From the NCBI GenBank assembly GCA_023665185.1, contig JAMPEL010000004.1, forward strand, positions 10,489-74,488: a DNA stretch of 64,000 nt, written 5' to 3'. Origin of the DNA: Roseburia sp. (GTDB lineage: Bacteria; Bacteroidota; Bacteroidia; Bacteroidales; Bacteroidaceae). Under the pieces are notes generated by a model. It was given only the letters and a program-made list of their open reading frames with translations. It was not told where the DNA came from and ran no database searches. Within the stretch, counting starts at the first letter, position 1. Each line of letters begins with the position of its first letter. A program made the position numbers and the translations under genes. Positions 5,690-56,966 of this stretch are shown one piece after another.

Positions 5690-7570
5690 TCATTTCAGAA
5701 ATTCCCCAAATATTTCTCCCGATTCTGATACAATCACTATCTCAAGGTATTCAGGTGGAAAAACAGAAGCAGCCACTTCAAGGGATTTACTAAGAATACG
5801 ACTAAAAAACAAACGGGAGTCATCGGCATCCAAAATAGTCCAAAGTTCACGGGCAAGTTTTATTTCTGATATTACATTTATTGCCGACAATGAACATCCT
5901 GACTCAACCGCCTGTTGTATCAGAAAGTCCTTATTCATCACCACCTTATGGCTGTGTGTATCGAGATGTCCCTCTGCCAGTTTCACAGCCTTGCCAATCA
6001 TGACACCTAAAGTGACACGGCATTCGGAATCGCCATACACCTCACGAATGGCAGCAAGCGTCTCACCAATAAAGTTTCCATAATGGATAAAAGCTTGCGG
6101 AACAAGTGACGGGAAGCGATTTTTAAGGACACGCTCACTTTTCGCGCCCGAATTGATGACAATATGTCTGCATCCGGAAGCATGAGCCACCTCAATCTCC
6201 CGATGAATGCTTTCAACAAAAGCCTCATTGGAGAACGGACGCACAATGCCCGATGTGCCGATGATGGAGATTCCGCCAACGATCCCGACTTTCGGATTAA
6301 AAGTCCGCTTGGCAAGTTCCTCACCTCCGGGAACACTTACTATTATCCGCAAGTGGCTGTATTTATCTGAGCAAGAACACATATCCCGCATAGCGGACAA
6401 TTCTGTTCTTATCATATTGCGCGGAACAGGATTAATGGCTGGTCCGCCAACCTCAATCCCAAGTCCGGGCAATGTGACTGTGCCTACTCCTTGCCCTCCA
6501 ACAAACTCAAATTCCGGGCTGCCGGAATTTGTCTCACACTGCTCCACACGCACCACAATTCTGCATCCGTTTGTCACATCAGGGTCATCACCTGAGTCTT
6601 TCACAATCACCGATTCTGCATTATGTTCCCCTATCAAAGTAGACTCTACAGGAATTGACAATATCTCTCCATCGGGAAGAGAAAAAGATACATCGGCAAG
6701 TTCCTCTCCATACAGCAAAGCATAAAAAGCGGCTTTTGCCGCTGCGGTAGCACACGCTCCCGTTGTAAGCCCTGTATGCAGTGGATAAAAATCTGGTATG
6801 AGATGTTCCAAAGCTCTCCGCAATCCGTGCCGTCCGGTAACAATCTGCGGACAGAATCCGGGAATAGAGGTCTGGGGATGGGAAACCACGAATATCTTTA
6901 TTCCCATCCGGCGCGCCGCCTCCACTTTTGCAGCAAATCCTCCCGACTCCCCACTCTCTTTTGTGATAATCGCATCAGGGCATACAGAAGACATGACAGC
7001 CAGTTCCTCCTCTACAGTAGGGAGGGAATTAGCAGCCATATCACCTTTATAATAAATAAGATTTGATTCAGGGAAGCCTTGTTTTTTTGCCAAGTCAATA
7101 CTTTCCTTCCGGGGAAGAATCCGAAAAAAAGTATCTACACTCTGCCAAAACGGTTTCAATTTGGCGATTGTGTTGGCACCACTCAAGGCAAGCAGACGTC
7201 TGACACCATGAGAGAGAAGTCGCGTTACCGCATCATTATAACCGGCACAATATACAGCATCTTCGACTTTATGTCCGAAACTTCTTTGCAACCGTATGAC
7301 TGGTATCGACAGTTGCAATGAGGCCTCTGCTATCGACAAATGCAGATTCTCGGCGAACGGATGTGCCGCATCTACTATACAGCAGATGTCATTATCACGG
7401 CAAAAGGCTACCATGTCGTCTTTTGTCATCACACCGGACAACCTTTTGCCGTGATGAAGAGCAATCTGTTGTAGTTCTCCTTTAGTTGAATAAAAGAAAC
7501 ACCTCCCCGACTCTTCTGCCACTTCAGCAGCAAGTCTGCCTTCCGTTGTTCCACCGAAAATCAAAAGCAT
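5690..7570 (-). CDS. cbiJ/cbiD: Fused cobalt-precorrin-6A reductase (CbiJ/CobK) and cobalt-precorrin-5B methyltransferase (CbiD)
   Basis: N-terminus MLLIFGGTTEGR ... VDAAHPFA is CobK/CbiJ-like. The C-terminal half has the CbiD signature GLTTGACATAAAKAA. Confidence 0.8.
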   Translation of the reverse strand: MLLIFGGTTEGRLAAEVAEESGRCFFYSTKGELQQIALHHGKRLSGVMTKDDMVAFCRDNDICCIVDAAHPFAENLHLSIAEASLQLSIPVIRLQRSFGHKVEDAVYCAGYNDAVTRLLSHGVRRLLALSGANTIAKLKPFWQSVDTFFRILPRKESIDLAKKQGFPESNLIYYKGDMAANSLPTVEEELAVMSSVCPDAIITKESGESGGFAAKVEAARRMGIKIFVVSHPQTSIPGFCPQIVTGRHGLRRALEHLIPDFYPLHTGLTTGACATAAAKAAFYALLYGEELADVSFSLPDGEILSIPVESTLIGEHNAESVIVKDSGDDPDVTNGCRIVVRVEQCETNSGSPEFEFVGGQGVGTVTLPGLGIEVGGPAINPVPRNMIRTELSAMRDMCSCSDKYSHLRIIVSVPGGEELAKRTFNPKVGIVGGISIIGTSGIVRPFSNEAFVESIHREIEVAHASGCRHIVINSGAKSERVLKNRFPSLVPQAFIHYGNFIGETLAAIREVYGDSECRVTLGVMIGKAVKLAEGHLDTHSHKVVMNKDFLIQQAVESGCSLSAINVISEIKLARELWTILDADDSRLFFSRILSKSLEVAASVFPPEYLEIVIVSESGEIFGEFLK

Positions 7571-7582
7571 AACGCAATATTC

Positions 7583-9454
7583 CTAATCTACCTTTGCCGT
7601 TCTGAATAAATGAGTAAAACCTCCATCATAAAGTTTGCTCAGTCCGCTACGATTGTCAATAGCCTCACCAACGACAATCATTGTGGTCATGTCGAGCGAG
7701 TTTCCTTCCACAATAGACACAAGTTCACTAAGTTTGCCACGGTAAATACGCTGTTCCTTCCAAGTGAGCTTATAACATGCCGCCACAGGAGTTTCAGGAG
7801 GATAGCATTCCAATAACTCCGCCTGCACCTGACGGACAATTCCGGCACTGAGGAAGATACACATTGTAGACTGTGAGCGCGCAAGCAAATGCAGTTTTTC
7901 CTTTTCCGGCATAGGCGTACGACCCTCACCACGTGTGAGAATAATAGTCTGCACTCTTTCAGGAATCGTAAACTGGGAGCGAAGTTCAGCCGCAGCAGCC
8001 TGAAAAGAGGATATGCCCGGTGTGATATGATAGCTCATTCCATATTTGTCAAAGAAGTTCATCTGTTCTTGAATGGCTCCATATATACATGGGTCACCAG
8101 TATGCAAACGCACCACAAGCAGCCCTTTATCATAAAAGCTCTTCATCAGTTCAAACTGTTCTTCCAGATTCATAGAGGCTGACGAACGCACTACCGCCCC
8201 CTGCTTTGCACAATATGTCAGCTCGCGAGGCACCAAACTTCCGGCATACAGAATGAGGTCGGCACGTTCAAGAAACTTTCTGCCTCTCACACTGACCAGT
8301 TCAGGATCACCGGGACCTGCCCCTACAATTTCTATATGCCCGCCTTGCTTGCGCTCGGAAGAAACTGCAAGCGCATAAGTATAATGTGAAGTGGCGTCCA
8401 GACGGCACACTCCTTTATGTTTCTCAATCACAAGACGCGAGTCGGAAGCTCCCGCCAGAGCGGCTGCTTCGGCAACCCCGTATGTTCCGGTCGTCTGAAA
8501 AACTTTTTCAGAAGGATTCGGAACTTCCATTTCATTCAGTCTGTCGGCTGTGTAAATGCACAAACGGGCAGCCTTGCAGAATTGAAGAAGCTCAGGCAAC
8601 ACAGGCTCGTCTTTCTTCAATTCAATAGTACCAATCGTGGAGATTGATTCTGGTGCGTATCCTGCCATTGTCACTTCTTCTATAATCTGAATCGCCGTCT
8701 CTTTTGGTGTCAGCCTCTGACATCCTATGCCAAGATGCAAGACTGGCGGGAAAAATTGTAGATATGAAATATTCTCAACCTCATAAATACGAGGAGAGAC
8801 AAGTATCAGAAGAGCAAAATCTTCCTTTCCTTCAAGATGTTGCTCATTACGGACAGCACAAAATTCCTCATAACTGAAAAAGACATCAACATGTTCAGGC
8901 TTGGAATCCAACATCATATCCGTACCGGCAACCTTACATTCCACCACCAAAGCTGTCTTGCGTCCGCCAACAAACAGGGAAATCGCATCATTCATCTGTT
9001 TGTGAGAAGCCGTAACTTGCCAACCATAATCACGCGCCAAAGTATCAAGTGCCCACAAACCATGGTTGTCACTCTGTGTGGTAATGACAGCTTCTCCACC
9101 TGTCACAGAAGCAATAAACCGGGCAAGCTGATTTGCTCCGCCTACATGTCCAGACAATACGGGAATGACATAATGTCCGGTACTGTCCACACATACAACA
9201 GCCGGATCCTCGTATTTGTCATTCACCAAACCGGAGATACTTCTGACACATATCCCCATAGCGCAAATAAAGACCAAAGCGTCCACCTTTCCAAACAGTT
9301 CTTTTGCTGTATCGGATACGGAAGTGATTCTCTCACAACCTTCAATCTCGCCCTTATAATATAATGTCACGTCCGACTTGCCTGCCTCGCTTTTTATCGC
9401 TTTTGCCACCGCCAATGATGATGGCGACACAAGTATTATCGCTATCTTTTTCAT
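7583..9454 (-). CDS. cbiG/cbiF: Fused cobalt-precorrin-5A hydrolase (CbiG) and precorrin-4 C11-methyltransferase (CbiF/CobM)
   Basis: N-terminal CbiG-like region. C-terminal tetrapyrrole methylase motif VGAGPGDPELVSVRG ... LILYAGSLVP is typical of CbiF. Confidence 0.75.
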   Translation of the reverse strand: MKKIAIILVSPSSLAVAKAIKSEAGKSDVTLYYKGEIEGCERITSVSDTAKELFGKVDALVFICAMGICVRSISGLVNDKYEDPAVVCVDSTGHYVIPVLSGHVGGANQLARFIASVTGGEAVITTQSDNHGLWALDTLARDYGWQVTASHKQMNDAISLFVGGRKTALVVECKVAGTDMMLDSKPEHVDVFFSYEEFCAVRNEQHLEGKEDFALLILVSPRIYEVENISYLQFFPPVLHLGIGCQRLTPKETAIQIIEEVTMAGYAPESISTIGTIELKKDEPVLPELLQFCKAARLCIYTADRLNEMEVPNPSEKVFQTTGTYGVAEAAALAGASDSRLVIEKHKGVCRLDATSHYTYALAVSSERKQGGHIEIVGAGPGDPELVSVRGRKFLERADLILYAGSLVPRELTYCAKQGAVVRSSASMNLEEQFELMKSFYDKGLLVVRLHTGDPCIYGAIQEQMNFFDKYGMSYHITPGISSFQAAAAELRSQFTIPERVQTIILTRGEGRTPMPEKEKLHLLARSQSTMCIFLSAGIVRQVQAELLECYPPETPVAACYKLTWKEQRIYRGKLSELVSIVEGNSLDMTTMIVVGEAIDNRSGLSKLYDGGFTHLFRTAKVD

Positions 9455-9473
9455 ACATTCATGTTTTATGCGG

Positions 9474-9481
9474 CAAAAGTA
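9474..9481 (-). promoter_or_regulatory. Putative -7 box (TACTTTTG) upstream of cbiG/cbiF
   Basis: Minus-strand TACTTTTG sits 20 nt upstream of ATG 9454. Confidence 0.4.
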
Positions 9482-9751
9482 CTGAAAAAGTAGCTAACTA
9501 CATCACTTTTGATGTTTTTGTGTTCTTTGGGTCGGTGTTCTTTCTCAAACTTTTCACATTCGGCAGATGTACAGACATAAGTTTTGTGGATAGCACCATT
9601 CAGTTTCACCACACTAAAGTCTAAAATCAACAATGCTGATTTAAAAAATCCGCTCTCCATTCCAATTTTGACATTGCAGACTAAAAAGAACTTTAAGCAA
9701 AAGTTATATGCACTATATAACAGATATTATCATCTGAAATGTCAGACGGAC

Positions 9752-9785
9752 AAAAAAAAGAGTGAAGCTGTCAAAACTTCACTCC
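9752..9785 (-). terminator. Rho-independent terminator after rubredoxin
   Basis: Minus strand reads GAGTGAAG-loop-CTTCACTC followed by TTTTTTTT. Confidence 0.6.
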
Positions 9786-9822
9786 TTTCTCTTAGATTAT
9801 TAATATTCAATCCTGAAAAAAA

Positions 9823-9987
9823 TCAATCTTCAACTTCTGAAAATTCATCTTTGCCTACAGCACACAAAGGACATTCAAAATCTTCAGGAAGGTCCTCAAA
9901 TGCTGTTCCAGGTTCGATACCTGCTTCTGGTACACCTACAGCCGGGTCGTAAACCCAACCGCATACATCACAAACATACTTTTTCAT
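9823..9987 (-). CDS. Rubredoxin (54 aa, below the ORF-track size cutoff)
   Basis: Hand translation of the minus strand gives [54 protein letters not shown]. It has both CxxCG and CPxCG knuckles. It lies directly upstream of cbiG/cbiF and downstream of rubrerythrin. Confidence 0.9.
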
Positions 9988-10023
9988 AATAAAATCATTT
10001 TATAGTGTAAACAATAAATATAT

Positions 10024-10563
10024 TTAGTAATTCTCTGCCTTAATCTGATAATAGGCACGCGCATGTGAACATACTGGACATTTTTCAGGTGCTTCCTTTC
10101 CAATGACTATATGACCGCAGTTGCCACACTGCCAGATACATTCTCCATCTTTAGTGAACACTTTCTTGTCAAGCACATTTTTGAGCAATTTGCGATAACG
10201 CTCCTCATGTTCTTTCTCAATGGCGGCAACACCTTCAAAAAGATCTGCAATATCATCAAACCCTTCCTCGCGGGCTTCCTTAGCCATTCGCGGATACATG
10301 TCACTCCATTCATACTGCTCACCTTCAGCGGCATCGAGCAGATTTGCGGCTGTCTCTTTGACTTTGCCTCCCGACAGAAGCTTAAACCAAATCTTGGCAT
10401 GCTCTTTCTCGTTGTTTGCAGTTTCCTCAAACAAGTTTGCAATTTGAACATATCCGTCCTTTTTAGCCTTGCTTGCATAAAAAGTATATTTGTTCCTTGC
10501 TTTTGACTCACCAATATAAGCCTCCATGAGGTTTGCTTCCGTTTTTGTACCTTTTAGTTTCAT
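10024..10563 (-). CDS. rbr: Rubrerythrin
   Basis: Ferritin-like diiron domain ([35 protein letters not shown]) plus a C-terminal rubredoxin-like CGNCGH...CPVCSH. Confidence 0.9.
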
Positions 10564-47748: not shown

Positions 47749-47796
47749 CACTCACAAAAATAGCCGCCCATTTATGGACGGCTATTTTTGTGAGTG
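47749..47796 (-). terminator. Long perfect hairpin downstream of the island operon (possible terminator or boundary)
   Basis: 18-bp perfect stem cactcacaaaaatagccg / cggctatttttgtgagtg with a 12-nt loop. There is no clean external U-run, so its function is uncertain. Confidence 0.45.
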
Positions 47797-47851: not shown

Positions 47852-48193
47852 TTATATAGTTCTATCAAAATCCTTTTTGATACCCGCAAAATTACGAACA
47901 ATGTCGTAAATCATCACTTCATTGGCATCGATATTTTCATCAACAACTATCATGTTTGCCATAAGATCTGCGAAATATTCCTTTTGTTCTTCGTCAAACA
48001 TTTTGACTTGCGCTAATGCCATTAGTGAATTTTTGTCATCTACATCTTTGCGAGAATCATCTTGCATCTGAAACTTTTCTTTCAACTGATTGAAATAAAA
48101 CATTTCTCGGGCATCAATACGACCATCAGCTTGGATAATATCCAATAAGATGCGCATTATTGCTATTTTTTGCTGATAATTAAATGTATTCAT
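47852..48193 (-). CDS. TerB-like small protein (island gene 4)
   Basis: Two TerB-type helical pairs: ILLDIIQADGRIDAREMFYF and LMANMIVVDENIDANEVMIY. The start is 5 nt after the upstream stop. Confidence 0.65.
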   Translation of the reverse strand: MNTFNYQQKIAIMRILLDIIQADGRIDAREMFYFNQLKEKFQMQDDSRKDVDDKNSLMALAQVKMFDEEQKEYFADLMANMIVVDENIDANEVMIYDIVRNFAGIKKDFDRTI

Positions 48194-48198
48194 ATATG

Positions 48199-49452
48199 TT
48201 ACTTCTTTTTGTTCTTAGCCATACGTTTCTTTTCCATCTCTGGATCAAATCCGTATAAAGCGATGACGTCTTTTACATTTTTGTCAAACTTTCTCACAGT
48301 TTCATATCCAAGAGATAATTTCTTCTCATAATCTTCGTTGTCATAGACAGGACAAACATCAGCTTTCCCCTTACCCTTCTGCTTTTTTCTCATCCACAAA
48401 ATAGGAAGTTTGCAGGCTGTAACATCATCTATGCCATCTTTTGGAGCTGATGGGGTAACAGTAACATTCTTCTTAAAGAATGCCAAGTCTGCAGCTTCAT
48501 AGAATGCGTCGTAAGTCTTATCATATCCTAAAGTAATACCAAGAAGATAAACTGCCACAGAACATTCAAAGCCTCCAATTGTCTTAGCATAAGAGATAAC
48601 TTTTTCGCTTGGCCTATGATCCATTCCATTAGAGAATTTATCCTTTAGGAATAAGAACAATGGCGCAGCTATTGCAAATTTACATCCTGAGACTCGCTCA
48701 GTCTGATGAGACAAAGGCGAAGCTTCTACTAATTTATAAAGAGACGCATACTGTGGATCTTTACATGATATAAGTTGCAGATAAATCTGAGTAGATTCTG
48801 CAACTTCACCATCAAGTTCTTGTTTCTTTAAGAAGTTACAGTACACGTGTATAAAATCGCAGAAAAATCCTATCATATTTTTGGGATAAAAGCTATGGCG
48901 CTCATATCTAAGTAAGTATGTCCAAATAGACAAATCACCAAAAGGACGTTCGTTCGCATATAACTGGCGGAACACTTCTTGGACTGATTCGGGAGTAATT
49001 ATTTCTTCACATTTCTCACGATCCTCCTCAGGCAAATCAAATATTAACCAAAGGTTGTCTATCCCGCGCATGCATTGTTTAATATATAAACTCTGTTGAA
49101 GTTTCTCAAATTTATCCACCCAAGGTGATACATGAAGCTGGATACGCGGATCAAAAGAAATCGACATTTCCTTTTTTGCTTCTTCATCAAAAGTATACAC
49201 ACCACGAACATTTCTAATATCTATCTCGATATATAAACCATTACATTCTTCTGCAATAAAATGAACTATCAAGTACTCAAAAGAGTACCCATACATATTT
49301 ATTCTTGAAGTGAGAGCATCAAATAGTTCTTCGTCATTTGCATGCTCTGATACTAATCCATCAAATGGTACAGCATAGCTAATACGGAACTGACCATATT
49401 TAAATAAGTCGACAAAATCTAACTTACGTATTATTGCTAAGTAATCTTTCAT
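48199..49452 (-). CDS. Orphan 417-aa protein (island gene 3), no recognisable motif
   Basis: Long AT-rich ORF. Start chosen at ATG 49452 because the junction TAATTATG repeats the junction of the preceding gene pair. An alternative ATG is at 49467. Lys-rich C-terminus. Confidence 0.6.
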   Translation of the reverse strand: MKDYLAIIRKLDFVDLFKYGQFRISYAVPFDGLVSEHANDEELFDALTSRINMYGYSFEYLIVHFIAEECNGLYIEIDIRNVRGVYTFDEEAKKEMSISFDPRIQLHVSPWVDKFEKLQQSLYIKQCMRGIDNLWLIFDLPEEDREKCEEIITPESVQEVFRQLYANERPFGDLSIWTYLLRYERHSFYPKNMIGFFCDFIHVYCNFLKKQELDGEVAESTQIYLQLISCKDPQYASLYKLVEASPLSHQTERVSGCKFAIAAPLFLFLKDKFSNGMDHRPSEKVISYAKTIGGFECSVAVYLLGITLGYDKTYDAFYEAADLAFFKKNVTVTPSAPKDGIDDVTACKLPILWMRKKQKGKGKADVCPVYDNEDYEKKLSLGYETVRKFDKNVKDVIALYGFDPEMEKKRMAKNKKK

Positions 49453-49454
49453 AA

Positions 49455-50639
49455 TTAGAAGCCCCAAGTACTATTACCTCCAAATGATGGAGTTTGTATT
49501 GTTGAAGAAATATCTATCTGAGAGCAATTTGATTTGAATGCGTCTAGATAATCGCTAGGACAACCATTATAGGTGATATAGAGATTCTTACGAGTTCGGG
49601 TCATTGCAACCATAAACAAAGTCTTAGCCAATGAATCATTAGGGCTAATATACATGCTTGCATTCGCATATGGTATAAATACGTTTTCAAAGTCAAGACT
49701 TTTGGCACTATGAAATGTCATGATAATGATTCGATGATCATTTTCATCAAAGCTACCATATCCATTACCTATATATTGCATTTTTATACCATTTCTGCGC
49801 AAATGAGAGTTCATTGCACCAAAATCAATTCTTCCCCAGTTGTTTGTTGTTTCAACCCATTCCGGCTTGCCAGCATCACTAAGCGCTTGATTCACGAATT
49901 TAATAATCTTTTGAGCTGTAGGTATAAGAACTGCTGTTGAATCTCCAACATTCACTGCTTTAGTTGCTTGTTCCATTATATATTTTACCTCTTTTGCTTC
50001 AGAAGGTGCGGTACAAAGACGTATTTGCGTATCATCCTTGGTCATATCCCTCTTTGAAGAAAAAATATTCATTCGAGGTAAGAAACGTTGAACAGCATCA
50101 ATAATAGAGCGTGATAATCTATGAATGATGCCCAATTCATAAGGTTCGCCATTAATTAGACGTCCTATTTGCGATGGTGTAACTGTTGCTTCTCTCCAAC
50201 GAGGATCGCTATCATAGATAGATTGATTAGAGTCTCCTGCTACAATTATATTTGAACCGCGAGCATTCATTTCGCAAATAACACGTGGTATCAAATCTTG
50301 TACCTCATCACAAAGAATATAATCATAGTTAGAGCTACCCTTCATAAAACCGTAATACGTATCAATTGTTACTTTCGAATCAAGGCCTAGCTCCTTAAAG
50401 TCTGCCTTAAACATTTCTACAAGTGATTTTGTAAATACAACAACCAAAATACTGGAATCGGGGTTCTTCGCAAGGATTGTCTTTGCTGCATACGCAAGCA
50501 AGACGGACTTTCCAGAACCAGCAAATCCTTGAATCCATTGGTTGCGAAAACTTGTACTATAATTGTTAACAAATGCGCTGACTTTGTCAAGAAAGGCCTG
50601 CTGTTGTGGGTCTAACCTGTTAATTGGAGGAATGTGCAT
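49455..50639 (-). CDS. Compact SF1 (UvrD/Rep-like) helicase-family ATPase (island gene 2)
   Basis: Motif I GFAGSGKS, II CDEVQD, III VAGDSNQSIY, V FHSAKSLDFENVF, VI VAMTRTRKNLYI. Confidence 0.75.
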   Translation of the reverse strand: MHIPPINRLDPQQQAFLDKVSAFVNNYSTSFRNQWIQGFAGSGKSVLLAYAAKTILAKNPDSSILVVVFTKSLVEMFKADFKELGLDSKVTIDTYYGFMKGSSNYDYILCDEVQDLIPRVICEMNARGSNIIVAGDSNQSIYDSDPRWREATVTPSQIGRLINGEPYELGIIHRLSRSIIDAVQRFLPRMNIFSSKRDMTKDDTQIRLCTAPSEAKEVKYIMEQATKAVNVGDSTAVLIPTAQKIIKFVNQALSDAGKPEWVETTNNWGRIDFGAMNSHLRRNGIKMQYIGNGYGSFDENDHRIIIMTFHSAKSLDFENVFIPYANASMYISPNDSLAKTLFMVAMTRTRKNLYITYNGCPSDYLDAFKSNCSQIDISSTIQTPSFGGNSTWGF

Positions 50640-50641
50640 AA

Positions 50642-53050
50642 TTAATATTTTGTTGTTAGCATATTTGTTTTTGTTTTAGATAGATTTTCTGAGTCGTAAT
50701 AAGTATCTCCTTGTGGTCCCGGTGTCGACATACGAATTTCTTTTGCAAAAAGCTTTTCGCCAAGTTCTTCTGCAACACTAGCAAACCAGCCATAAGCATA
50801 ATTAGGCAAAGAATTAGTTTTCCACTGACGAAGATACATGTCATATACTTTCTGAAATTTTTCTTTTGCCCCTGTTTGGTCACCTTCTGACTTTTGAATT
50901 CTACCAAGTTCAATTAGTGCAATATCATGCTCTGGATCCACAGAAATGGCTCTTTGCAAATACTCTTTTGCTCGCTTTGGATCACGGAATCTTAAGGTTG
51001 AACCTAAGTTGGCATTAGCATACTTATGATTAGGATTCTCCTCCAATGCTTTCTCATAGAACTCAATCGCCTTATCTGTCGCTCCTGCGTTATTGTAGAG
51101 CACAGCAATCCCATTATACATATCAGCTTCTGGATATAATTCATTTTGCAGTTCATATGTTTCAGCAGCTTTAAATGTGTGGCCGGCTTTATCATATGCT
51201 CTACGAAGAGCGATAAGCGTTTGTTTTGATGGGATTCCACCATTTAACTCTGCCTCTAGATTAGCTTGCCTTTCTGCTTTTAGTGCGACTCTGTCCTCGG
51301 TACTAAGCTCTTTGTTTGCAAATGGGCTTAGAGGTTCTACATGACATATAACACCCATACATGTAGCTCGCACTATTAACATTTTGTCTGTGTTAACTTC
51401 TATAGCAAGCTCAATAGGACAATTGATAGGGAATCCACGTGGTAAGGTTGATTCTATTTTTATGTTGAACAATAATTTTCTTACATCACCAACACATATA
51501 GGCAACTCTACAACTTTTTGACCATCACGGCTTGTAACCAAATCGTCAATAATAATAGTGTCACAAGGAATTTGTGTTCCTGCAGGTAGAATCACTTTTG
51601 GCCGCTCATCCTTCGTAATAATTAGGATTGGCTCGCTTGAAATCGGTTGGATCAAACACTTATTCATTCCGTTAAACAACAGACTATGTATTGCAGCTCC
51701 TTGCGAAACATGAGTTTGCAGATTAGAAGGAACTAACATTTCAGAATCCTCAAAGTATTTTTTCAATTCTTCTTGAATATAAGGGCTTTGAGCACTTCCA
51801 CCAATAAAGAGAATGTAATCTATTTCCTCTTTCGCAACTTTAGATTTTTTAATGGCACTTTCAATAGGTGAGTAAATGCTGTTATATTCATCCTCACCCT
51901 TAATGCGAGTTGTTTTACTATAACCATTTTTCAAGAAAATGCTTATAGTATCAGTCATTTCCTTATAGGTTAAGTAAAAAGCACTTTGTCTTAACTCGCC
52001 CTTGTTTGTGTAAACGACAACTTCTGATTCTACTGTAGCCTTCATATCACTGTTTTTTACAATAGGCATAACAAATTCAGATGTAAGCATAGCAAGAGAC
52101 TTGTTTATCATTATTTTAAGACGCTCAGCTACTTTATACAATGCGGAAGCTATATACTTCTTTTCATTTGTGCGGAATTGTTCCATTTGCTTGCCATTTG
52201 CTTGCAAAAAGCGAGGCATTAGATAATGGTAAGTTATGTACCGATCAATATCATCACCGCCAAGTTTTGTAAACTTTGATATGGCTATATTTTTTGAGAA
52301 GAAGCCATTCGCACTTTGACCAATTTCCAAAATGGATATATCACATGTTCCACCACCGAAATCAAAAACTAAAACCTTTGAGTTGTAGTCTGGATTTACA
52401 AACATAGGTTGTCCATCTGTCGCACGATAAACTGCATAACTAATGAAAGCCGCATTAGGCTCGTCAATTAAAGCTTGCTTAGAGATTTTCATGTCATTAG
52501 CCATTAACGCATCCAATAAATCCTTACGCTGATTTGCTTCGAAAGATGCAGGAATACTAACTGCATACGATATATCCTTGCTCAATTTATTCTCTTGGCA
52601 ATAGCCTATAATCAAATACTTTAGATATGCGAAAAAGACTCGTGCAGCATCTTTGGGGTTGCGAATATAAAAAGGGGCTGTATTGCGAAGCTCACTTTCA
52701 TAATACTTTGCTCCCAAATCTTCACCAAGTTCCATTTTGAATGAGTACCATATATTTTTTCCTCTTTTAAGGTGATATTTGAGTTGAGACGCTCCTTCTC
52801 CTACAAGAATTTGCTCGTTATTCCACGCTATTACGGATGGAACAATTTCCGAAGAATAAAGAGTTCCGTCAGGTAACTTTTGTTTTAGACGTAATGAATC
52901 CGTGTGAATCAAACAGCCATCTTCATCGTACGATGCTACAGAGACAACAGATGTTGATGTTCCAAAATCAATACCCACATAGGTTTTGCATCGCAGTATT
53001 GCATTATTTCTTACTGCTGGCAAAAAAGATGAAATAGTAATTTTATTCAT
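50642..53050 (-). CDS. Hsp70-family ATPase fused to C-terminal TPR repeats (island gene 1)
   Basis: Start moved to ATG 53050, because the ORF-track start 53257 overlaps the upstream gene. GIDFGTSTS, VFDFGGGTCDIS, ILFIGGSAQSP, then a beta-rich region and three to four TPR-like repeats. Confidence 0.75.
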   Translation of the reverse strand: MNKITISSFLPAVRNNAILRCKTYVGIDFGTSTSVVSVASYDEDGCLIHTDSLRLKQKLPDGTLYSSEIVPSVIAWNNEQILVGEGASQLKYHLKRGKNIWYSFKMELGEDLGAKYYESELRNTAPFYIRNPKDAARVFFAYLKYLIIGYCQENKLSKDISYAVSIPASFEANQRKDLLDALMANDMKISKQALIDEPNAAFISYAVYRATDGQPMFVNPDYNSKVLVFDFGGGTCDISILEIGQSANGFFSKNIAISKFTKLGGDDIDRYITYHYLMPRFLQANGKQMEQFRTNEKKYIASALYKVAERLKIMINKSLAMLTSEFVMPIVKNSDMKATVESEVVVYTNKGELRQSAFYLTYKEMTDTISIFLKNGYSKTTRIKGEDEYNSIYSPIESAIKKSKVAKEEIDYILFIGGSAQSPYIQEELKKYFEDSEMLVPSNLQTHVSQGAAIHSLLFNGMNKCLIQPISSEPILIITKDERPKVILPAGTQIPCDTIIIDDLVTSRDGQKVVELPICVGDVRKLLFNIKIESTLPRGFPINCPIELAIEVNTDKMLIVRATCMGVICHVEPLSPFANKELSTEDRVALKAERQANLEAELNGGIPSKQTLIALRRAYDKAGHTFKAAETYELQNELYPEADMYNGIAVLYNNAGATDKAIEFYEKALEENPNHKYANANLGSTLRFRDPKRAKEYLQRAISVDPEHDIALIELGRIQKSEGDQTGAKEKFQKVYDMYLRQWKTNSLPNYAYGWFASVAEELGEKLFAKEIRMSTPGPQGDTYYDSENLSKTKTNMLTTKY

Positions 53051-53118: not shown

Positions 53119-54606
53119 TTACTCCGAGCCTCCATCTTGAAATTGTGGCTTGATTACTTTCCAATGGCCGCCGAAGTCCGGGCCAATCCTTTGTAGCAGT
53201 CCTTTTTCTCGCAGACCATCTACAATTCGTCTTGTAGCTTTTACCGAAAGACTGCATTCCTCGGCTAATTGTGAAACGCTGATACGAGGATTATCCTTTA
53301 TTAGGTCCAAAATTAGGTCTTGCCCCTGTCTTGCCCCTGTCTTGCCCCTGTCTTGCCCTTCTTCTTGTTTCTTGCTAAATTCCGTACCAGTCCCCCGTCT
53401 TAGGATAGTGGTTTCAGCATCTTTATCTTCTGCAACAGACGTGGCAAATACTGTGGCTTTCATGATGAACGCCACAACATTGTACAAAGGCTCACGAGTA
53501 CCCATAGCTATGAGTTCACGGCACATACGATCAACACCCTCACCAAACTCCTTTACATAATCGTAGGCTTTGAGGTATTCAGCAATCTTAGGATTGCGAG
53601 AGAAGTGGGTATGGCGGATATTGTCAGTGCGAACGATGCCAGGCAGTTTGCCGGGAGTCTCGAACACAATGCGGTCATCAAACATCTTTATTTGGATTTC
53701 CGTTCCTTTGATGCTGTAGTCACGGTGACAAACCGAATTGACCACCATCTCCTGTATCACAAACTTCGGATATTCACGGTCGGTACGGAAGATGCCATTC
53801 TCGCCAAGATAGGAATGTTCCTTTACTTGGGTTTCAAGGTATTCGATAGCCTTTTTTATCTGGTCGAGGATGCGCCCCTCAAAGGTTATGTCCTTGATAA
53901 CGTTCATTTCACGACCGACCTTCTCTTCCGTACCAGCATAGCGGATAAAACGCACACGGGCACGAGGGAAAAAACGCTGGGGATACCTGCCAAAGAGCAG
54001 AATGCAAGCAGTGCTTACCTGCGGAGCATCATTCTTGTAGGTTACAAAGTCCTTGTTCTCAGTGAGATATTCAATGGCGGACTTACCATAGCCGATGCGG
54101 TTCATGTAAGCCTTGACCATATCCATATCAACATCTTCGAGCGTGGCATCGTAAGCTGGACTGTCCTCAAAATAGCGTTCGCCTTTGTCGTACATCAGTC
54201 GGAGACGTTCCTCAAAAGAGAGTTTACGCGACTTGTCGCCTACCCTCCAAAATACCTCATCGGCTTGGTTGGCATGAAGACGTGGACTGGCCGGAACGTT
54301 GATGATTAGAATATGGTTGTCGTTGCCATAGTCGTCAACGCATGGAACAAGGTCGGTATTAACGGTTATACTCGGTACACAAAAATCAAGCGGTGTACGA
54401 AGAATCTCATTGAGATGTGCCGTATCTTGGTCCACTCCTTCAATGCGTCGAGTCTTATCAGAGATACCCACTGCAATCATACCCCCATCGGCATTGGCCA
54501 TAGCCACGATGGTGGTGGCAAGAGCTTTCGGATCTATGTGAATGCTTTTGCAATCAAAGGTCTGCCCTTCGGGCTTCAGACAGAGTTCTTCTATGGTGTA
54601 TCTCAT
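53119..54606 (-). CDS. AlbA_2 (Schlafen-like divergent AAA) / HATPase_c_4-like / C-terminal winged-HTH protein (COG2865-type)
   Basis: N-terminus EGQTFDCKS...AMANADGGMIAVGISD. Central NSVCHRDY...FETPG region. C-terminal wHTH ISVSQLAEECSLSVKATRRIVDGLREKGLL. ATG 54606 preferred over TTG 54633. Confidence 0.75.
   Translation of the reverse strand: MRYTIEELCLKPEGQTFDCKSIHIDPKALATTIVAMANADGGMIAVGISDKTRRIEGVDQDTAHLNEILRTPLDFCVPSITVNTDLVPCVDDYGNDNHILIINVPASPRLHANQADEVFWRVGDKSRKLSFEERLRLMYDKGERYFEDSPAYDATLEDVDMDMVKAYMNRIGYGKSAIEYLTENKDFVTYKNDAPQVSTACILLFGRYPQRFFPRARVRFIRYAGTEEKVGREMNVIKDITFEGRILDQIKKAIEYLETQVKEHSYLGENGIFRTDREYPKFVIQEMVVNSVCHRDYSIKGTEIQIKMFDDRIVFETPGKLPGIVRTDNIRHTHFSRNPKIAEYLKAYDYVKEFGEGVDRMCRELIAMGTREPLYNVVAFIMKATVFATSVAEDKDAETTILRRGTGTEFSKKQEEGQDRGKTGARQGQDLILDLIKDNPRISVSQLAEECSLSVKATRRIVDGLREKGLLQRIGPDFGGHWKVIKPQFQDGGSE
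53318..53361. repeat. 11-bp tandem repeat (gtcttgcccct x3 plus one imperfect copy) inside the AlbA_2-family gene
   Basis: Read directly. It is translated in all three frames as GQDRGKTGARQGQD in the linker before the wHTH. Confidence 0.85.
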
Positions 54607-54611
54607 TGTGG

Positions 54612-54824
54612 TTATTTCCGCTTGGTGTGGCAAATCAACTCGTGAATATCAATGTTTAGCAACTCGGCAATTCGAGCCAATGTATAAAGGTCGGGCTGCG
54701 CGCAATTAGTGCATCACTTGGATACCGTTGCAGGGTCTTTCTGCAAAAACTTTGCAAGCCATTTACTCATTATACCTCGTTCTGCCAGCACTGCTTTGAT
54801 ATGATTCAATTCTGCCAGCCTTAT
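54612..54824 (-). pseudogene. XRE-type HTH regulator remnant with an in-frame TGA and no ATG start
   Basis: Minus-strand frame reads IRLAELNHIKAVLAERGIMSKWLAKFLQKDPATVSK*CTNCAQPDLYTLARIAELLNIDIHELI. The TGA at 54714-54716 sits where XRE proteins have Trp (VSKW). The first codon is ATA. The stop lies 5 nt before the AlbA_2 ATG. Confidence 0.5.
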
Positions 54825-54843
54825 ATAAATTATGGGTTCACCA

Positions 54844-54851
54844 CAAATTTA
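54844..54851 (-). promoter_or_regulatory. Putative -7 box (TAAATTTG) upstream of the XRE remnant / AlbA_2 gene
   Basis: Minus-strand TAnnTTTG match sits 20 nt upstream of position 54824. Confidence 0.4.
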
Positions 54852-55028
54852 TGGCATTTTCTTGAGAAATCCTCATGATTGGGTGGAAAACTGTGAAAAC
54901 GGCAGCAAATTCGCCTCCTCCACACATTCATTATGTCCCTTGTCCACACTTTACATATAATGGAAATATCTTAAAACCCGAATCATTCCTCCGTCCATAT
55001 CGCAGAACAGCTGTATGCGGACAAAAGC

Positions 55029-55652
55029 ATTTTGACATTTTGTCACTTGAAAAGAGAACTCGATTTTAACATTTCGGGCGGTTTGGGATCTTGATTTTTG
55101 GAGCGATTTTTGAGACAACACACATAAATCGTTGATAATCAAACAGTTCCTATTTTGTAAAAAAGTCGCAGTTTTTGATCAAAAACGCATGGGTTTGATC
55201 AAAATAGGGAGTATTGATAATCAGAGAGTTATGAAAATCCGCCGTTAAAATCGCCATTTTTCGGCTTCAAAATCAATCTTTGTTTTTCGGGGTGTGGGAA
55301 AACGATATGTGAAAAGAAATTAAGGATTGTCCGGAAAGATACTCGATTTTAGCCCAAAATGCGGACTGAAAAAATTTCTTTCACCTTGAAAAAAAATTTG
55401 CAAGGTGAAACGCAAAAAATCGGTGCGCCTTACAAAAAAATTTTCAGCACCTTGCAATTTTGGACTTTTGGGCGGTTTGGGGCGGAAAAAGCATGTTTTG
55501 GGATTGATTTATTTTATCTTTTAAAATATAAATTACCTTATTTTTACATTTGAATTTCAAGTTTTGAAAACCGCCGTAGAATCGCTCAAATGCAGCCGAG
55601 GAAAGGTGCAGTCGATTTTGAGCGATTCTACGGGCATCGGGTTTTAACATTT
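55029..55652 (+). repeat. Copy C of the ~0.6 kb dispersed noncoding repeat family
   Basis: Same ordered blocks as copies A and B. TTTTAACAT occurs at 55064 and 55642. Terminal hairpin ccgtagaatcgctcaaa / tttgagcgattctacgg. A shared left-flank unit lies at about 54958-55027. Confidence 0.75.
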
Positions 55653-56121
55653 CAAATTGTCAGACATTTAGCACTTTTCCAAAGAAAATTCAGGAATTTA
55701 GTTGTTTTTTGTGTACACACCGCAACTTGCGACAGCAAACGGATGCTTATTAGTGCGGCATCACTTTTTCAAAGCCCAACGAAGCTGCTCGGCCATGAAC
55801 AGTCGGCTGTCCTTGCCCCACCAGCGTGTCGCCATCATTTTACACCGCAGTTGCCCGGCACGCCCAAGTCATGCAGAAACGGCTAATCACTATATATCAG
55901 TACCATGTTTGCCGACATAAAATTATCAGAGTGGCTTATCAGACTCAACCAAATCGCCATCCATCAGACGAGCGTATTGAAAAAAATGGCGATAACGACC
56001 GAAAGTTACTGAAATAAGTATTTAGAAAGGAAACATGGCAATAACCCCGGTATTCCGACATGCCCGTATGCACTTCCAGTTACTTTTTATAATATAACTC
56101 GCATTCTTCAGAAAAAAGACG

Positions 56122-56129
56122 TACCTTTG
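56122..56129 (+). promoter_or_regulatory. Putative -7 box (TACCTTTG) upstream of the MBL-fold hydrolase gene
   Basis: TAnnTTTG match sits 31 nt upstream of ATG 56160. Confidence 0.45.
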
Positions 56130-56159
56130 TGACAGAATTGAAAAGCAAGGTAAAACGAT

Positions 56160-56966
56160 ATGTTACAATTTATAAGTTTTGGAAGTGGAAGTTGTGGAAA
56201 CTGCTACTGTCTTAGCGATGGGAGCTGTTCTATTCTTATTGACGCGGGCATAAGCACCAGACGGCTGAAACGCTATTTTCGCGACTACGGTGTGAATCAG
56301 TCAGCAATATGCGCGCTCATTGTCACACACGACCATGCAGACCATATAAAAGCTGCCGGAAAGGTAAGCGGTGAATTAAAAATACCGGTATATGCCACAA
56401 AACTTGTACATGAGGGGATAAACCGCAATTTCCATGTACGAAACAAGATAGAGGAAACTTATGCACGGACGATTGAGAAGAACGAGACTTTTGAAATCGG
56501 GCAGTTCAAGATTACCCCATTCGAGATTCCGCACGACTCGATGGAGAATGTGGGATATTCCATCGAGCATGAGGGAGAGATTTTCACTATCATGACAGAC
56601 GTGGGGGCACCGACTAACAATGTGAAGCATTACATCTCAATAAGCAACCACCTCGTCATCGAGGCAAATTATGACATGGAGATGCTGGTGAACGGGAAAT
56701 ATCCTCTCCATCTAAAACAAAGGATTATGAGCGGAACGGGGCATCTGTCGAACAGACAGACAGCCGAGGCACTGGCGGAAAACTTCCATGCCGGATTGCG
56801 GAATGTATGGCTGTGCCACCTGAGCGAGGAGAACAACCATCCGGAACTGGCGAGGAAAACAATAGAGCAATATTTACGCTCGTATGGAATCATTGCCGAC
56901 ACCGACTTCACACTGGAGGTGTTGCGCAGAAAGATTCCGACAGGACCTTTCAACATCAGCGAATAA
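56160..56966 (+). CDS. MBL-fold metallo-hydrolase
   Basis: VTHDHADH motif plus downstream His/Asp ligands. Confidence 0.8.
   Translation: MLQFISFGSGSCGNCYCLSDGSCSILIDAGISTRRLKRYFRDYGVNQSAICALIVTHDHADHIKAAGKVSGELKIPVYATKLVHEGINRNFHVRNKIEETYARTIEKNETFEIGQFKITPFEIPHDSMENVGYSIEHEGEIFTIMTDVGAPTNNVKHYISISNHLVIEANYDMEMLVNGKYPLHLKQRIMSGTGHLSNRQTAEALAENFHAGLRNVWLCHLSEENNHPELARKTIEQYLRSYGIIADTDFTLEVLRRKIPTGPFNISE

Follow-up and report, generated by a model that had tools for sequence, protein, structure and literature searches.

Among the described systems closest to the one considered here, type III CoCoNuT encodes CnuD, a protein that joins Hsp70-like nucleotide-binding and substrate-binding domains to HEAT-like repeats, occurs with McrBC homologues and has Walker-like motifs described as degenerate (PMC11090510). 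Precedent for Hsp70-family ATPases in immune or cell-death modules is further provided by GTPase-centric conflict systems that involve tubulin and HSP70, or HSP70 and GrpE (PMC7159879), and by EACC1-protease modules fused to a lid-less DnaK-like domain; lid-less Hsp70 versions in predicted immune modules have been proposed to sense rather than to refold (bioRxiv 10.1101/2025.11.14.688446). The present analysis concerns a 64,000-nucleotide stretch of DNA (the window; positions 10,489 to 74,488 of contig JAMPEL010000004.1, assembly GCA_023665185.1, deposited as Roseburia sp. and placed in the Bacteroidaceae by GTDB), whose minus strand carries, at 50642–53050 with the stop codon included, a gene for an 802-residue protein composed of an Hsp70 core and a C-terminal TPR array (the Hsp70-TPR protein). 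It is the first gene of an operon whose conserved core, here called the triad, consists of Hsp70-TPR, a compact UvrD-like superfamily 1 (SF1) helicase and a protein designated P3; a TerB-like protein is added in many Bacteroidales. We regard the Hsp70-TPR gene as probably the signature gene of a mobile conflict or defence system, because the operon is conserved and mobile, has restriction–modification (RM) and abortive-infection (Abi) genes as neighbours, and includes relatives with swapped N-terminal effector domains. The immune function itself we infer, and it would most likely be directed against phages or plasmids. By analogy, the triad is a candidate for a new defence system, one where the STAND NTPase of Avs-type sensors has an Hsp70 ATPase in its place.

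Compared with the systems just named, the triad is distinct in its partner proteins as well as in its ATPase. CnuD works alongside a McrB-like GTPase and McrC, whereas the triad combines an Hsp70 with invariant catalytic residues with an SF1 helicase and P3 and has no McrBC; neither a McrB-like GTPase nor McrC (DUF2357) was found by Pfam in any of the four operon proteins, and the operon does not qualify as a CoCoNuT or McrBC type IV system. The partners in the GTPase-centric systems are GTPases, tubulin and GrpE, and those in the EACC1 systems are caspase-like proteases and EACC1, the DnaK-like domain of the latter being ∼50% identical to DnaK as compared to ∼22% for Hsp70-TPR. A literature search retrieved only CoCoNuT, the GTPase-centric systems and the EACC1 preprint, and no description of the triad.

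The limits of the Hsp70-TPR gene are set by its relatives. Its homologues comprise 801–805 residues, and the ATG at 53050 gives a protein of 802 residues, which is why the start is placed there; a longer reading frame extending to 53257 overlaps the upstream gene and is backed by none of the homologues. The Pfam HSP70 model (PF00012) matches with an E-value of 4.6e-32 and 111.4 bits, well above its gathering threshold of 20.6, and Hsp70 ATPase domains in the PDB match the N-terminal half of the protein. In a BLASTP alignment to Escherichia coli DnaK, residues 25–562 align with DnaK 5–488 at 22% identity. The ATPase (nucleotide-binding) domain, residues 23–462 (51665–52984), places D28, K105, E197, D230, T235 and D237 opposite the DnaK catalytic residues D8, K70, E171, D194, T199 and D201, and none of the six varies among 43 family members. 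The invariance of these residues suggests that the Hsp70 machinery is functional. The domain is followed by the interdomain linker CLIQP, which is partly hydrophobic, and the beta substrate-binding domain (together residues 463–575, 51326–51664), where the stretch PISSEPILIITKD matches the start of the DnaK beta domain. An AlphaFold2 model, calculated from an alignment of the 43 family members and having a mean predicted local distance difference test (pLDDT) score of 86.6, folds residues 475–570 as a beta-sandwich, and the best Foldseek matches of that model are full-length DnaK and BiP (E about 1e-28, 18–21% identity). A substrate-binding beta-sandwich behind a hydrophobic linker, as expected of an Hsp70, is therefore indicated alike by the alignment reaching DnaK 488, by the model and by Foldseek. 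With alignment, catalytic residues, modelled beta-sandwich and structural matches in agreement, Hsp70-TPR is a member of the Hsp70 superfamily carrying both classical domains.

What follows the beta domain departs from the Hsp70 plan. The canonical alpha-helical lid and the EEVD tail, the latter a feature of the cytosolic eukaryotic forms of Hsp70, are both missing, and in the model the lid, except for one helix, appears exchanged for a TPR array. The retained lid-like helix (584–602) lies together with a loop in residues 576–607 (51230–51325), a block that shows the highest conservation in the whole protein (mean column identity 0.57). The TPR array spans residues 608–775 (50726–51229) and is recognized by several Pfam models (TPR_1, TPR_8, TPR_16 and others), among which TPR_1 at residues 642–675 reaches 43 bits against a cut-off of 27.8 and TPR_8 39.4 bits against 25.7; PDB chains of designed consensus TPRs match residues 608–739, and the model has ten helices across 609–774, equal to 4–5 helical hairpins. 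Threshold-passing Pfam matches and a hairpin array thus both mark the region as TPR. The tail, residues 776–802 (50645–50725), contains in place of EEVD a motif Y785-[N/D]-x-[E/D]-N789-L790-[T/S], with Y785, N789 and L790 each kept in 66–69 of 73 family sequences by column counts. AlphaFold2 predicts short beta strands in the tail with modest confidence. Judging from the model, the conserved tail might dock in the protein's own beta domain or in the TPR groove as a pseudo-substrate. The preliminary description of the gene, made from the letters of the DNA, had proposed an intact nucleotide-binding domain followed by a beta-rich segment, both of which are borne out, and had recommended the structure prediction and Foldseek search whose results are given above. 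It also proposed three to four TPR repeats in place of the lid and a C-terminus without EEVD: the TPR fold, whose failure it had named as grounds for giving up the idea, is agreed on by Pfam, the consensus-TPR chains and the model, yet the repeats number four to five and one lid-like helix is kept, and the tail does lack EEVD without being featureless.

Downstream of Hsp70-TPR the operon continues with the helicase, P3 and the TerB-like gene, all on the minus strand and with hardly any spacing. The junctions read TAAttATG, TAAttATG and TAAcatatATG, the helicase start lying 2 nt past the Hsp70 stop, and with TAAttATG occurring twice the genes are translationally coupled. The helicase (394 residues, 49455–50639) matches the Pfam families UvrD_C, UvrD-helicase and Viral_helicase1; its motifs Q, I, II, III, V and VI, as assigned by eye, consist of residues at least 90% conserved in 68 sequences, so that the helicase too looks functional, and phmmer found no relative in the PDB at E≤0.01. 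The TerB-like protein (113 residues, 47852–48193) exceeds the Pfam TerB cut-off narrowly and over part of the model (25.6 compared to 24.4 bits), and its residues 3–105 align with PDB 2H5N, the hypothetical protein PG_1108 of Porphyromonas gingivalis, with an E-value of 2.4e-7. About 55 nt beyond this gene, an inverted repeat at 47749–47796 (23-nt arms, 96% complementary) is the probable end of the operon. The guanine–cytosine (GC) fraction of the four genes is 0.34–0.39, compared to 0.46–0.50 on the recJ/recQ side and 0.46–0.48 on the side of the upstream neighbour; neither a flanking tRNA nor convincing direct repeats were found at the boundaries of this island in the window.

P3 (417 residues, 48199–49452) is always found directly after the helicase. 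It consists of a conserved N-domain of ∼325 residues, a hypervariable disordered linker whose length ranges across homologues from almost nil to ∼150 residues, and a small conserved C-domain. None of its 277 detectable homologues carries a name or a Pfam domain, and searches of Pfam, NCBIfam, PADLOC and PHROGs gave no match. The AlphaFold2 model has a pLDDT of 88, and Foldseek returned nothing under E 0.2 for it in the PDB or in BFVD, a library of viral structures; a protein modelled with confidence and having no relative in either may therefore represent a new effector or adaptor fold. Profile search of the PDB gave a single low-complexity match at E 6.5. Resemblances to DarT or OGG1 (Foldseek template modelling scores of 0.1–0.17) were dismissed as noise, and assignment of the N-terminal alpha/beta part as a PD-(D/E)xK nuclease, considered by eye, was dropped on finding the candidate Asp unconserved. 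In the broad family there are a dozen near-invariant positions, of which only Y183, R185, D199 and Y318 are polar.

As a small mobile operon of a helicase with partner proteins, the locus invites comparison with Gabija, Hachiman (HamA/HamB) and Shango. Gabija joins the UvrD-like helicase GajB to GajA, an ATPase–TOPRIM nuclease. Unlike Gabija and Hachiman, the window operon has no GajA or HamA nuclease; its helicase is a minimal 394-residue SF1 core, and the ATPase partner is an Hsp70. In PADLOC, the helicase gave partial matches only, to GajB (E 1e-14 to 1e-8) and to NERD+UvrD models, and with the other operon genes matching no PADLOC model the operon does not qualify as Gabija. Shango is composed of a TerB-domain protein, an ATPase and a helicase, and to that extent the window operon is alike; no Sng model (SngABC) appeared among the helicase matches listed. 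PADLOC v2 searched at E≤0.1 gave no match for Hsp70-TPR, P3 or the TerB-like protein, and these three proteins therefore fit none of its models, Shango included.

The operon is one instance of a widespread arrangement. When 185,579 species genomes, one for each species, were scanned with a pattern, 214 related stretches were recovered, of which 80 loci were fetched and their gene order scored with profile hidden Markov models (HMMs) derived from the proteins of the window; among 1.84 billion representative proteins, 324 clusters matched at E≤1e-30. Hsp70-TPR, helicase and P3 follow one another in this order in essentially all of the ∼70 loci with enough DNA, and 67 loci have P3. The hosts include Bacteroidales, Cytophagales, Flavobacteriales, Chitinophagales, Campylobacterota, delta-proteobacterial metagenome-assembled genomes (MAGs) and a Gracilibacteria MAG. 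Mean column identities are 0.48 for Hsp70 (ATPase 0.53, beta 0.49, TPR 0.38), 0.44 for the helicase and 0.23 for P3. P3 is thus the fastest-evolving component and the TPR region varies more than the ATPase domain, evolutionary rates that fit an arms race.

The cassette is horizontally mobile. Its insertion sites vary: it is flanked by SusC/D genes and a ribosomal protein operon in a Prevotella, adjoins a primase, HU and DUF4248 region in a Tannerellaceae MAG, and adjoins SusC/D on a metagenome contig. Starting from a P3 homologue, an integrative mobilizable element of Bacteroidales, ∼10 kb long, was found identical in four chromosomal contexts (loci L103–L106, with a gene at 9001–10365 in each), and L097 has an element of this kind as well; it carries a small HTH_3 protein, Hsp70-TPR, the helicase, P3, a Mob_Pre relaxase, DUF5906 and a tyrosine integrase, and an index of the assembly collection lists exactly this P3 protein in 84 blocks. 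Hymenobacter sp. 102 has the triad both on the chromosome (L054) and on the 168-kb plasmid unnamedB (L055), with identical gene coordinates and HMM scores, and on an alphaproteobacterial plasmid from Antarctobacter the triad sits between IS6 and IS256, near partition and toxin–antitoxin genes. These contexts could also be read as those of an accessory module of mobile elements, not immune in function, in which the Hsp70 would remodel a replication or transfer protein while helicase and P3 acted on element DNA for its replication, mobilisation or stabilisation. In keeping with that explanation, a small integrative mobilizable element equipped with relaxase, DUF5906 and integrase has the triad as its main cargo; its plasmid copies adjoin IS elements, partition and toxin–antitoxin genes; and DnaK remodels the replication initiators of plasmids and phages. 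We nevertheless consider it improbable. The window and loci of several phyla have a stand-alone triad between housekeeping genes, with no relaxase, integrase or replication gene nearby; P3 has diverged much faster than would be expected of a replication factor bound to a fixed origin; and the domains fused to Hsp70-TPR in its relatives (HEPN, NERD, TIR and EAD11) are modules of toxin or immune type and do not serve replication.

Effector domains that are swapped in this way are typical of conflict systems. Among the matches listed, 48 of 150 representatives have an N-terminal extension of 170–370 residues before the same Hsp70 body, in which Pfam identifies HEPN_Swt1 (20 cases), NERD (8), EAD11 (4), DuOB (2), a Ser/Thr kinase (1) and TIR (1); EAD11 is an effector-associated domain. 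The NERD, HEPN, kinase and DuOB versions all retain the downstream helicase, and where the contig of an extended version runs on, a P3-sized gene with no Pfam match comes next. The kinase version adjoins an Eco57I-like gene, an SNF2 gene, HicB and MazE, and neighbours across the NERD, HEPN, kinase and DuOB versions also include Mrr_N and DUF488. Variable toxic or signalling domains mounted on a conserved NTPase-repeat chassis are a hallmark of immune sensors such as Avs/STAND. The extended relatives resemble these in having a swappable N-terminal effector (HEPN, NERD, TIR, kinase, EAD), an NTPase and TPRs, and both families are mobile and situated in defence islands. They differ in that Hsp70-TPR has an actin-fold ATPase and a beta substrate-binding domain instead of a P-loop STAND module, in that a separate helicase and P3, neither of them required by Avs proteins, are invariably part of the triad, and in that the window version has no fused effector. 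No P-loop NTPase family (NACHT, NB-ARC) is among the Pfam matches of Hsp70-TPR, so that the resemblance is one of architecture only.

Neighbouring genes point in the same direction. Locus L097 reads HsdR, Abi_alpha, DUF4145 (HEPN), HsdS, HsdM, a SLFN-like gene, the triad, relaxase, DUF5906 and integrase. Scanning 131 open reading frames within 1.8 kb of the cassette in ∼50 loci against PADLOC (E≤1e-8) gave, as raw counts with no matched control, four mad2, three type I methyltransferases, one type IIG RM, one type I RM fusion, SspC and DrmD. The suggestion made in the preliminary description, that Hsp70-TPR is the switch of a conflict system rather than a folding chaperone, gains from the conserved operon, its mobility, the RM/Abi neighbours and the N-terminal effector domains taken together.

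Several observations weigh against an immune reading of the triad. Within the window the SLFN-like gene is the sole defence-like neighbour, and the window version of the operon contains no recognisable toxic effector; in P3, no enzyme signature was detectable. The neighbour counts, lacking a matched control, are supportive only. Frequent carriage on mobilizable elements could equally mean service to the element. On viral contigs the cassette is rare, with six related stretches, four of them good matches, among 2.9 million contigs. As regards novelty, a TerB–Hsp70–helicase neighbourhood may already have been mentioned in the 2012 work on Ter systems.

A housekeeping role of the Hsp70 core was examined by comparison with the NCBIfam models. 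The DnaK equivalog TIGR02350 gives 107.7 bits against a cut-off of 822.55, the HscA equivalog TIGR01991 gives 88 against 708.55 (the DnaK and HscA equivalogs together range from 88 to 108 bits against cut-offs of 620–1019), and the 'molecular chaperone' model NF008673 gives 40.1 against 331, which places Hsp70-TPR far below every cut-off for DnaK, HscA and NF008673. Compared with DnaK, HscA and HscC, it is alike in the Hsp70 fold, the catalytic residues and the beta substrate-binding domain, and unlike in the TPR array, the single lid helix, the missing EEVD and the absence of a linked J-domain or GrpE gene. No gene for a J-domain protein (DnaJ, DjlA, HscB) or GrpE was detected in the window by tblastn with E. 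coli queries at E≤1, nor a J-domain there by a small J-domain HMM, and tblastn with E. coli queries likewise detected neither gene in 89 related loci. The preliminary description had noted the lack of such genes in the window, which holds, and had named membership of a housekeeping Hsp70 clade as the outcome that would overturn its proposal; the NCBIfam scores speak for the opposite.

A sub-threshold J-like domain was detected, by the small HMM and Pfam, in two Campylobacterota loci only (L072 and L077). There, a gene overlapping the P3 stop (L072:12897-15746 and L077:8469-11042) codes for a coiled-coil protein whose J-like segment, KKACKLCHPDIVSDNLKEKAHEIMQLLNEAY, contains an HPD motif within ...KLCHPDIV... 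and scores 20.3 bits with Pfam DnaJ, under the cut-off of 27.8. Behind it lies DUF4145 in L072, and a methyltransferase-like domain occupies that position in L077; DUF4145 is a HEPN family according to the HEPN survey (PMC3710099). To the extent that the sequences can tell, these proteins hint at effectors that could couple to Hsp70-TPR through a canonical J-type contact.

It might alternatively be supposed that Hsp70-TPR is a specialised stress chaperone, an Hsp70 paralogue with an inbuilt TPR co-chaperone module that would fold or protect certain clients, helicase and P3 being among these clients or acting as cofactors. TPR domains are classical co-chaperone modules of Hsp70, the TerB fold is that of the N-domain of the DnaK co-chaperone DjlA, and the intact ATPase and beta domains and the partly hydrophobic interdomain linker agree with the idea. 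It is, however, very unlikely in view of the patchy, horizontally acquired distribution (the 214 stretches among 185,579 species genomes), the lack of a nearby J-domain or exchange-factor gene in most loci, the nuclease, NADase or kinase domains fused in relatives, and the adjoining RM and Abi genes.

The fourth gene of the operon varies in a manner that has to be considered in assigning function to the whole. Among the 80 fetched loci, 15 have a small TerB-like gene after P3, each of the 15 being assigned to Bacteroidales or to a close relative, and outside these loci the fourth position is variable or empty. Genes observed after P3 include those for a PIF1-like helicase (L070:5500-6909), HsdM (L057:13385-15568) and DUF2130 (L048:13254-14531). 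In L018, a 447-residue protein (6511-7854) with an N-terminal TerB-like part and a C-terminal part of ∼330 residues is encoded directly upstream of Hsp70-TPR; Pfam gives no match for it, and the locus has the small TerB-like gene in fourth position as well. A link of TerB-containing systems to stress and to phage resistance has been described (Anantharaman 2012, as quoted by a later paper). One could thus conceive of a Ter-type response to chemical or membrane stress, or of a DNA-repair module, built around the TerB-like protein and the helicase, and besides the TerB domain match the adjacency of the window operon to recJ and recQ would suit that idea. Of the explanations considered it is the least probable: most triad loci have no TerB-like gene; the Ter partners TerC, TerD, TerZ and TelA are absent from the operon and from the neighbour lists inspected, TerC, TerD and TelA being counted directly against it; and none of the other loci with inspected flanks has the operon beside recJ and recQ.

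For a conflict system built on the triad, a division of labour is tentatively suggested, and we hold it to be possible rather than probable, in which Hsp70-TPR would be an ATP-driven sensor and switch while helicase and P3 would provide the output. The beta domain, the TPR array and the conserved tail would hold a partner (P3 or helicase) or else a protein or peptide derived from the invader; such binding, together with ATP hydrolysis, would shift the conformation of Hsp70-TPR, as in the Hsp70 cycle, and the shift would release or license the output arm. In the window that arm would consist of helicase and P3 acting on nucleic acid of the invader or the host, and relatives would add a nuclease, NADase or kinase at the Hsp70 N-terminus; the TerB-like protein would be an optional modulator. 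Because it is the fastest-evolving component and contains a hypervariable linker, P3 is the best candidate for a determinant of specificity or a target of counter-measures: it may be at least as good a specificity candidate as the TPR array, or it may be what phage counter-measures are aimed at.

A more far-reaching version, which we think unlikely though less so than a service to mobile elements, has Hsp70-TPR as a chaperone-derived pattern-recognition receptor, an Hsp70 counterpart of nucleotide-binding leucine-rich repeat receptors (NLRs) and Avs that would detect phage proteins by client binding. Detection would involve the beta domain, J-type contacts and TPR docking, and the trigger would be abundant unfolded structural proteins of the phage, or phage factors that hijack the host DnaK; in the latter case Hsp70-TPR would guard the host chaperone system or serve as its decoy. 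Detection would then be turned, by ATP hydrolysis, into activation of the helicase–P3 arm or of the fused HEPN, NERD or TIR effectors, with P3 as an effector or adaptor of new fold.

Should the triad prove to be a defence system, actin-fold Hsp70 would constitute a third class of core ATPase beside P-loop STAND and ABC/SMC-type machines, and the chaperone cycle itself would be seen to be rewirable as an immune switch. The triad is abundant in Bacteroidales of the human gut and mouth (Prevotella, Bacteroides, Tannerella), whose phage–host biology is poorly charted and whose systems are missed by standard screens in E. coli or Bacillus. The family moreover offers natural experiments, in that its versions may have or lack a fused HEPN, NERD, TIR, kinase or EAD11 domain, may have or lack the TerB-like gene, and in some cases come with J-like effectors, and the mechanism is therefore directly testable.

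Upstream of the operon, on the same strand at 53119–54633, lies a gene for a protein in which Pfam identifies SLFN/AlbA_2, HATPase_c_4 and winged-helix domains, and which matches a pAgo-associated model of PADLOC (E 3e-37). Such a SLFN-like gene adjoins the triad in four loci (the window, L019:13660-15339, L041:4772-6286 and L097:7721-9211). It was considered as a fifth core component and set aside because its GC content is unlike that of the cassette, it occurs in these four loci only, and neither its position nor its orientation is constant; possibly it is a defence-island gene in its own right. Inside it, at 53317–53360, an 11-nt unit GTCTTGCCCCT is present in about four tandem copies, which lie within the linker (...EEGQDRGKTGARQGQD...) that joins HATPase_c_4 to the winged-helix domain. 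Because 11 nt do not make up whole codons, adding or losing a copy would put the gene out of frame and remove the DNA-binding domain, and the repeat could be a phase-variation site. The related SLFN-like protein in L097 has a linker that is similar, not identical. Between the SLFN-like gene and an MBL-fold gene, the ∼1.5 kb at 54634–56160 have a GC of 0.36–0.42 and no long open reading frame; no tRNA was found there, and the segment contains several short inverted repeats, for example 55574–55590 with 55617–55633, which are 100% complementary.

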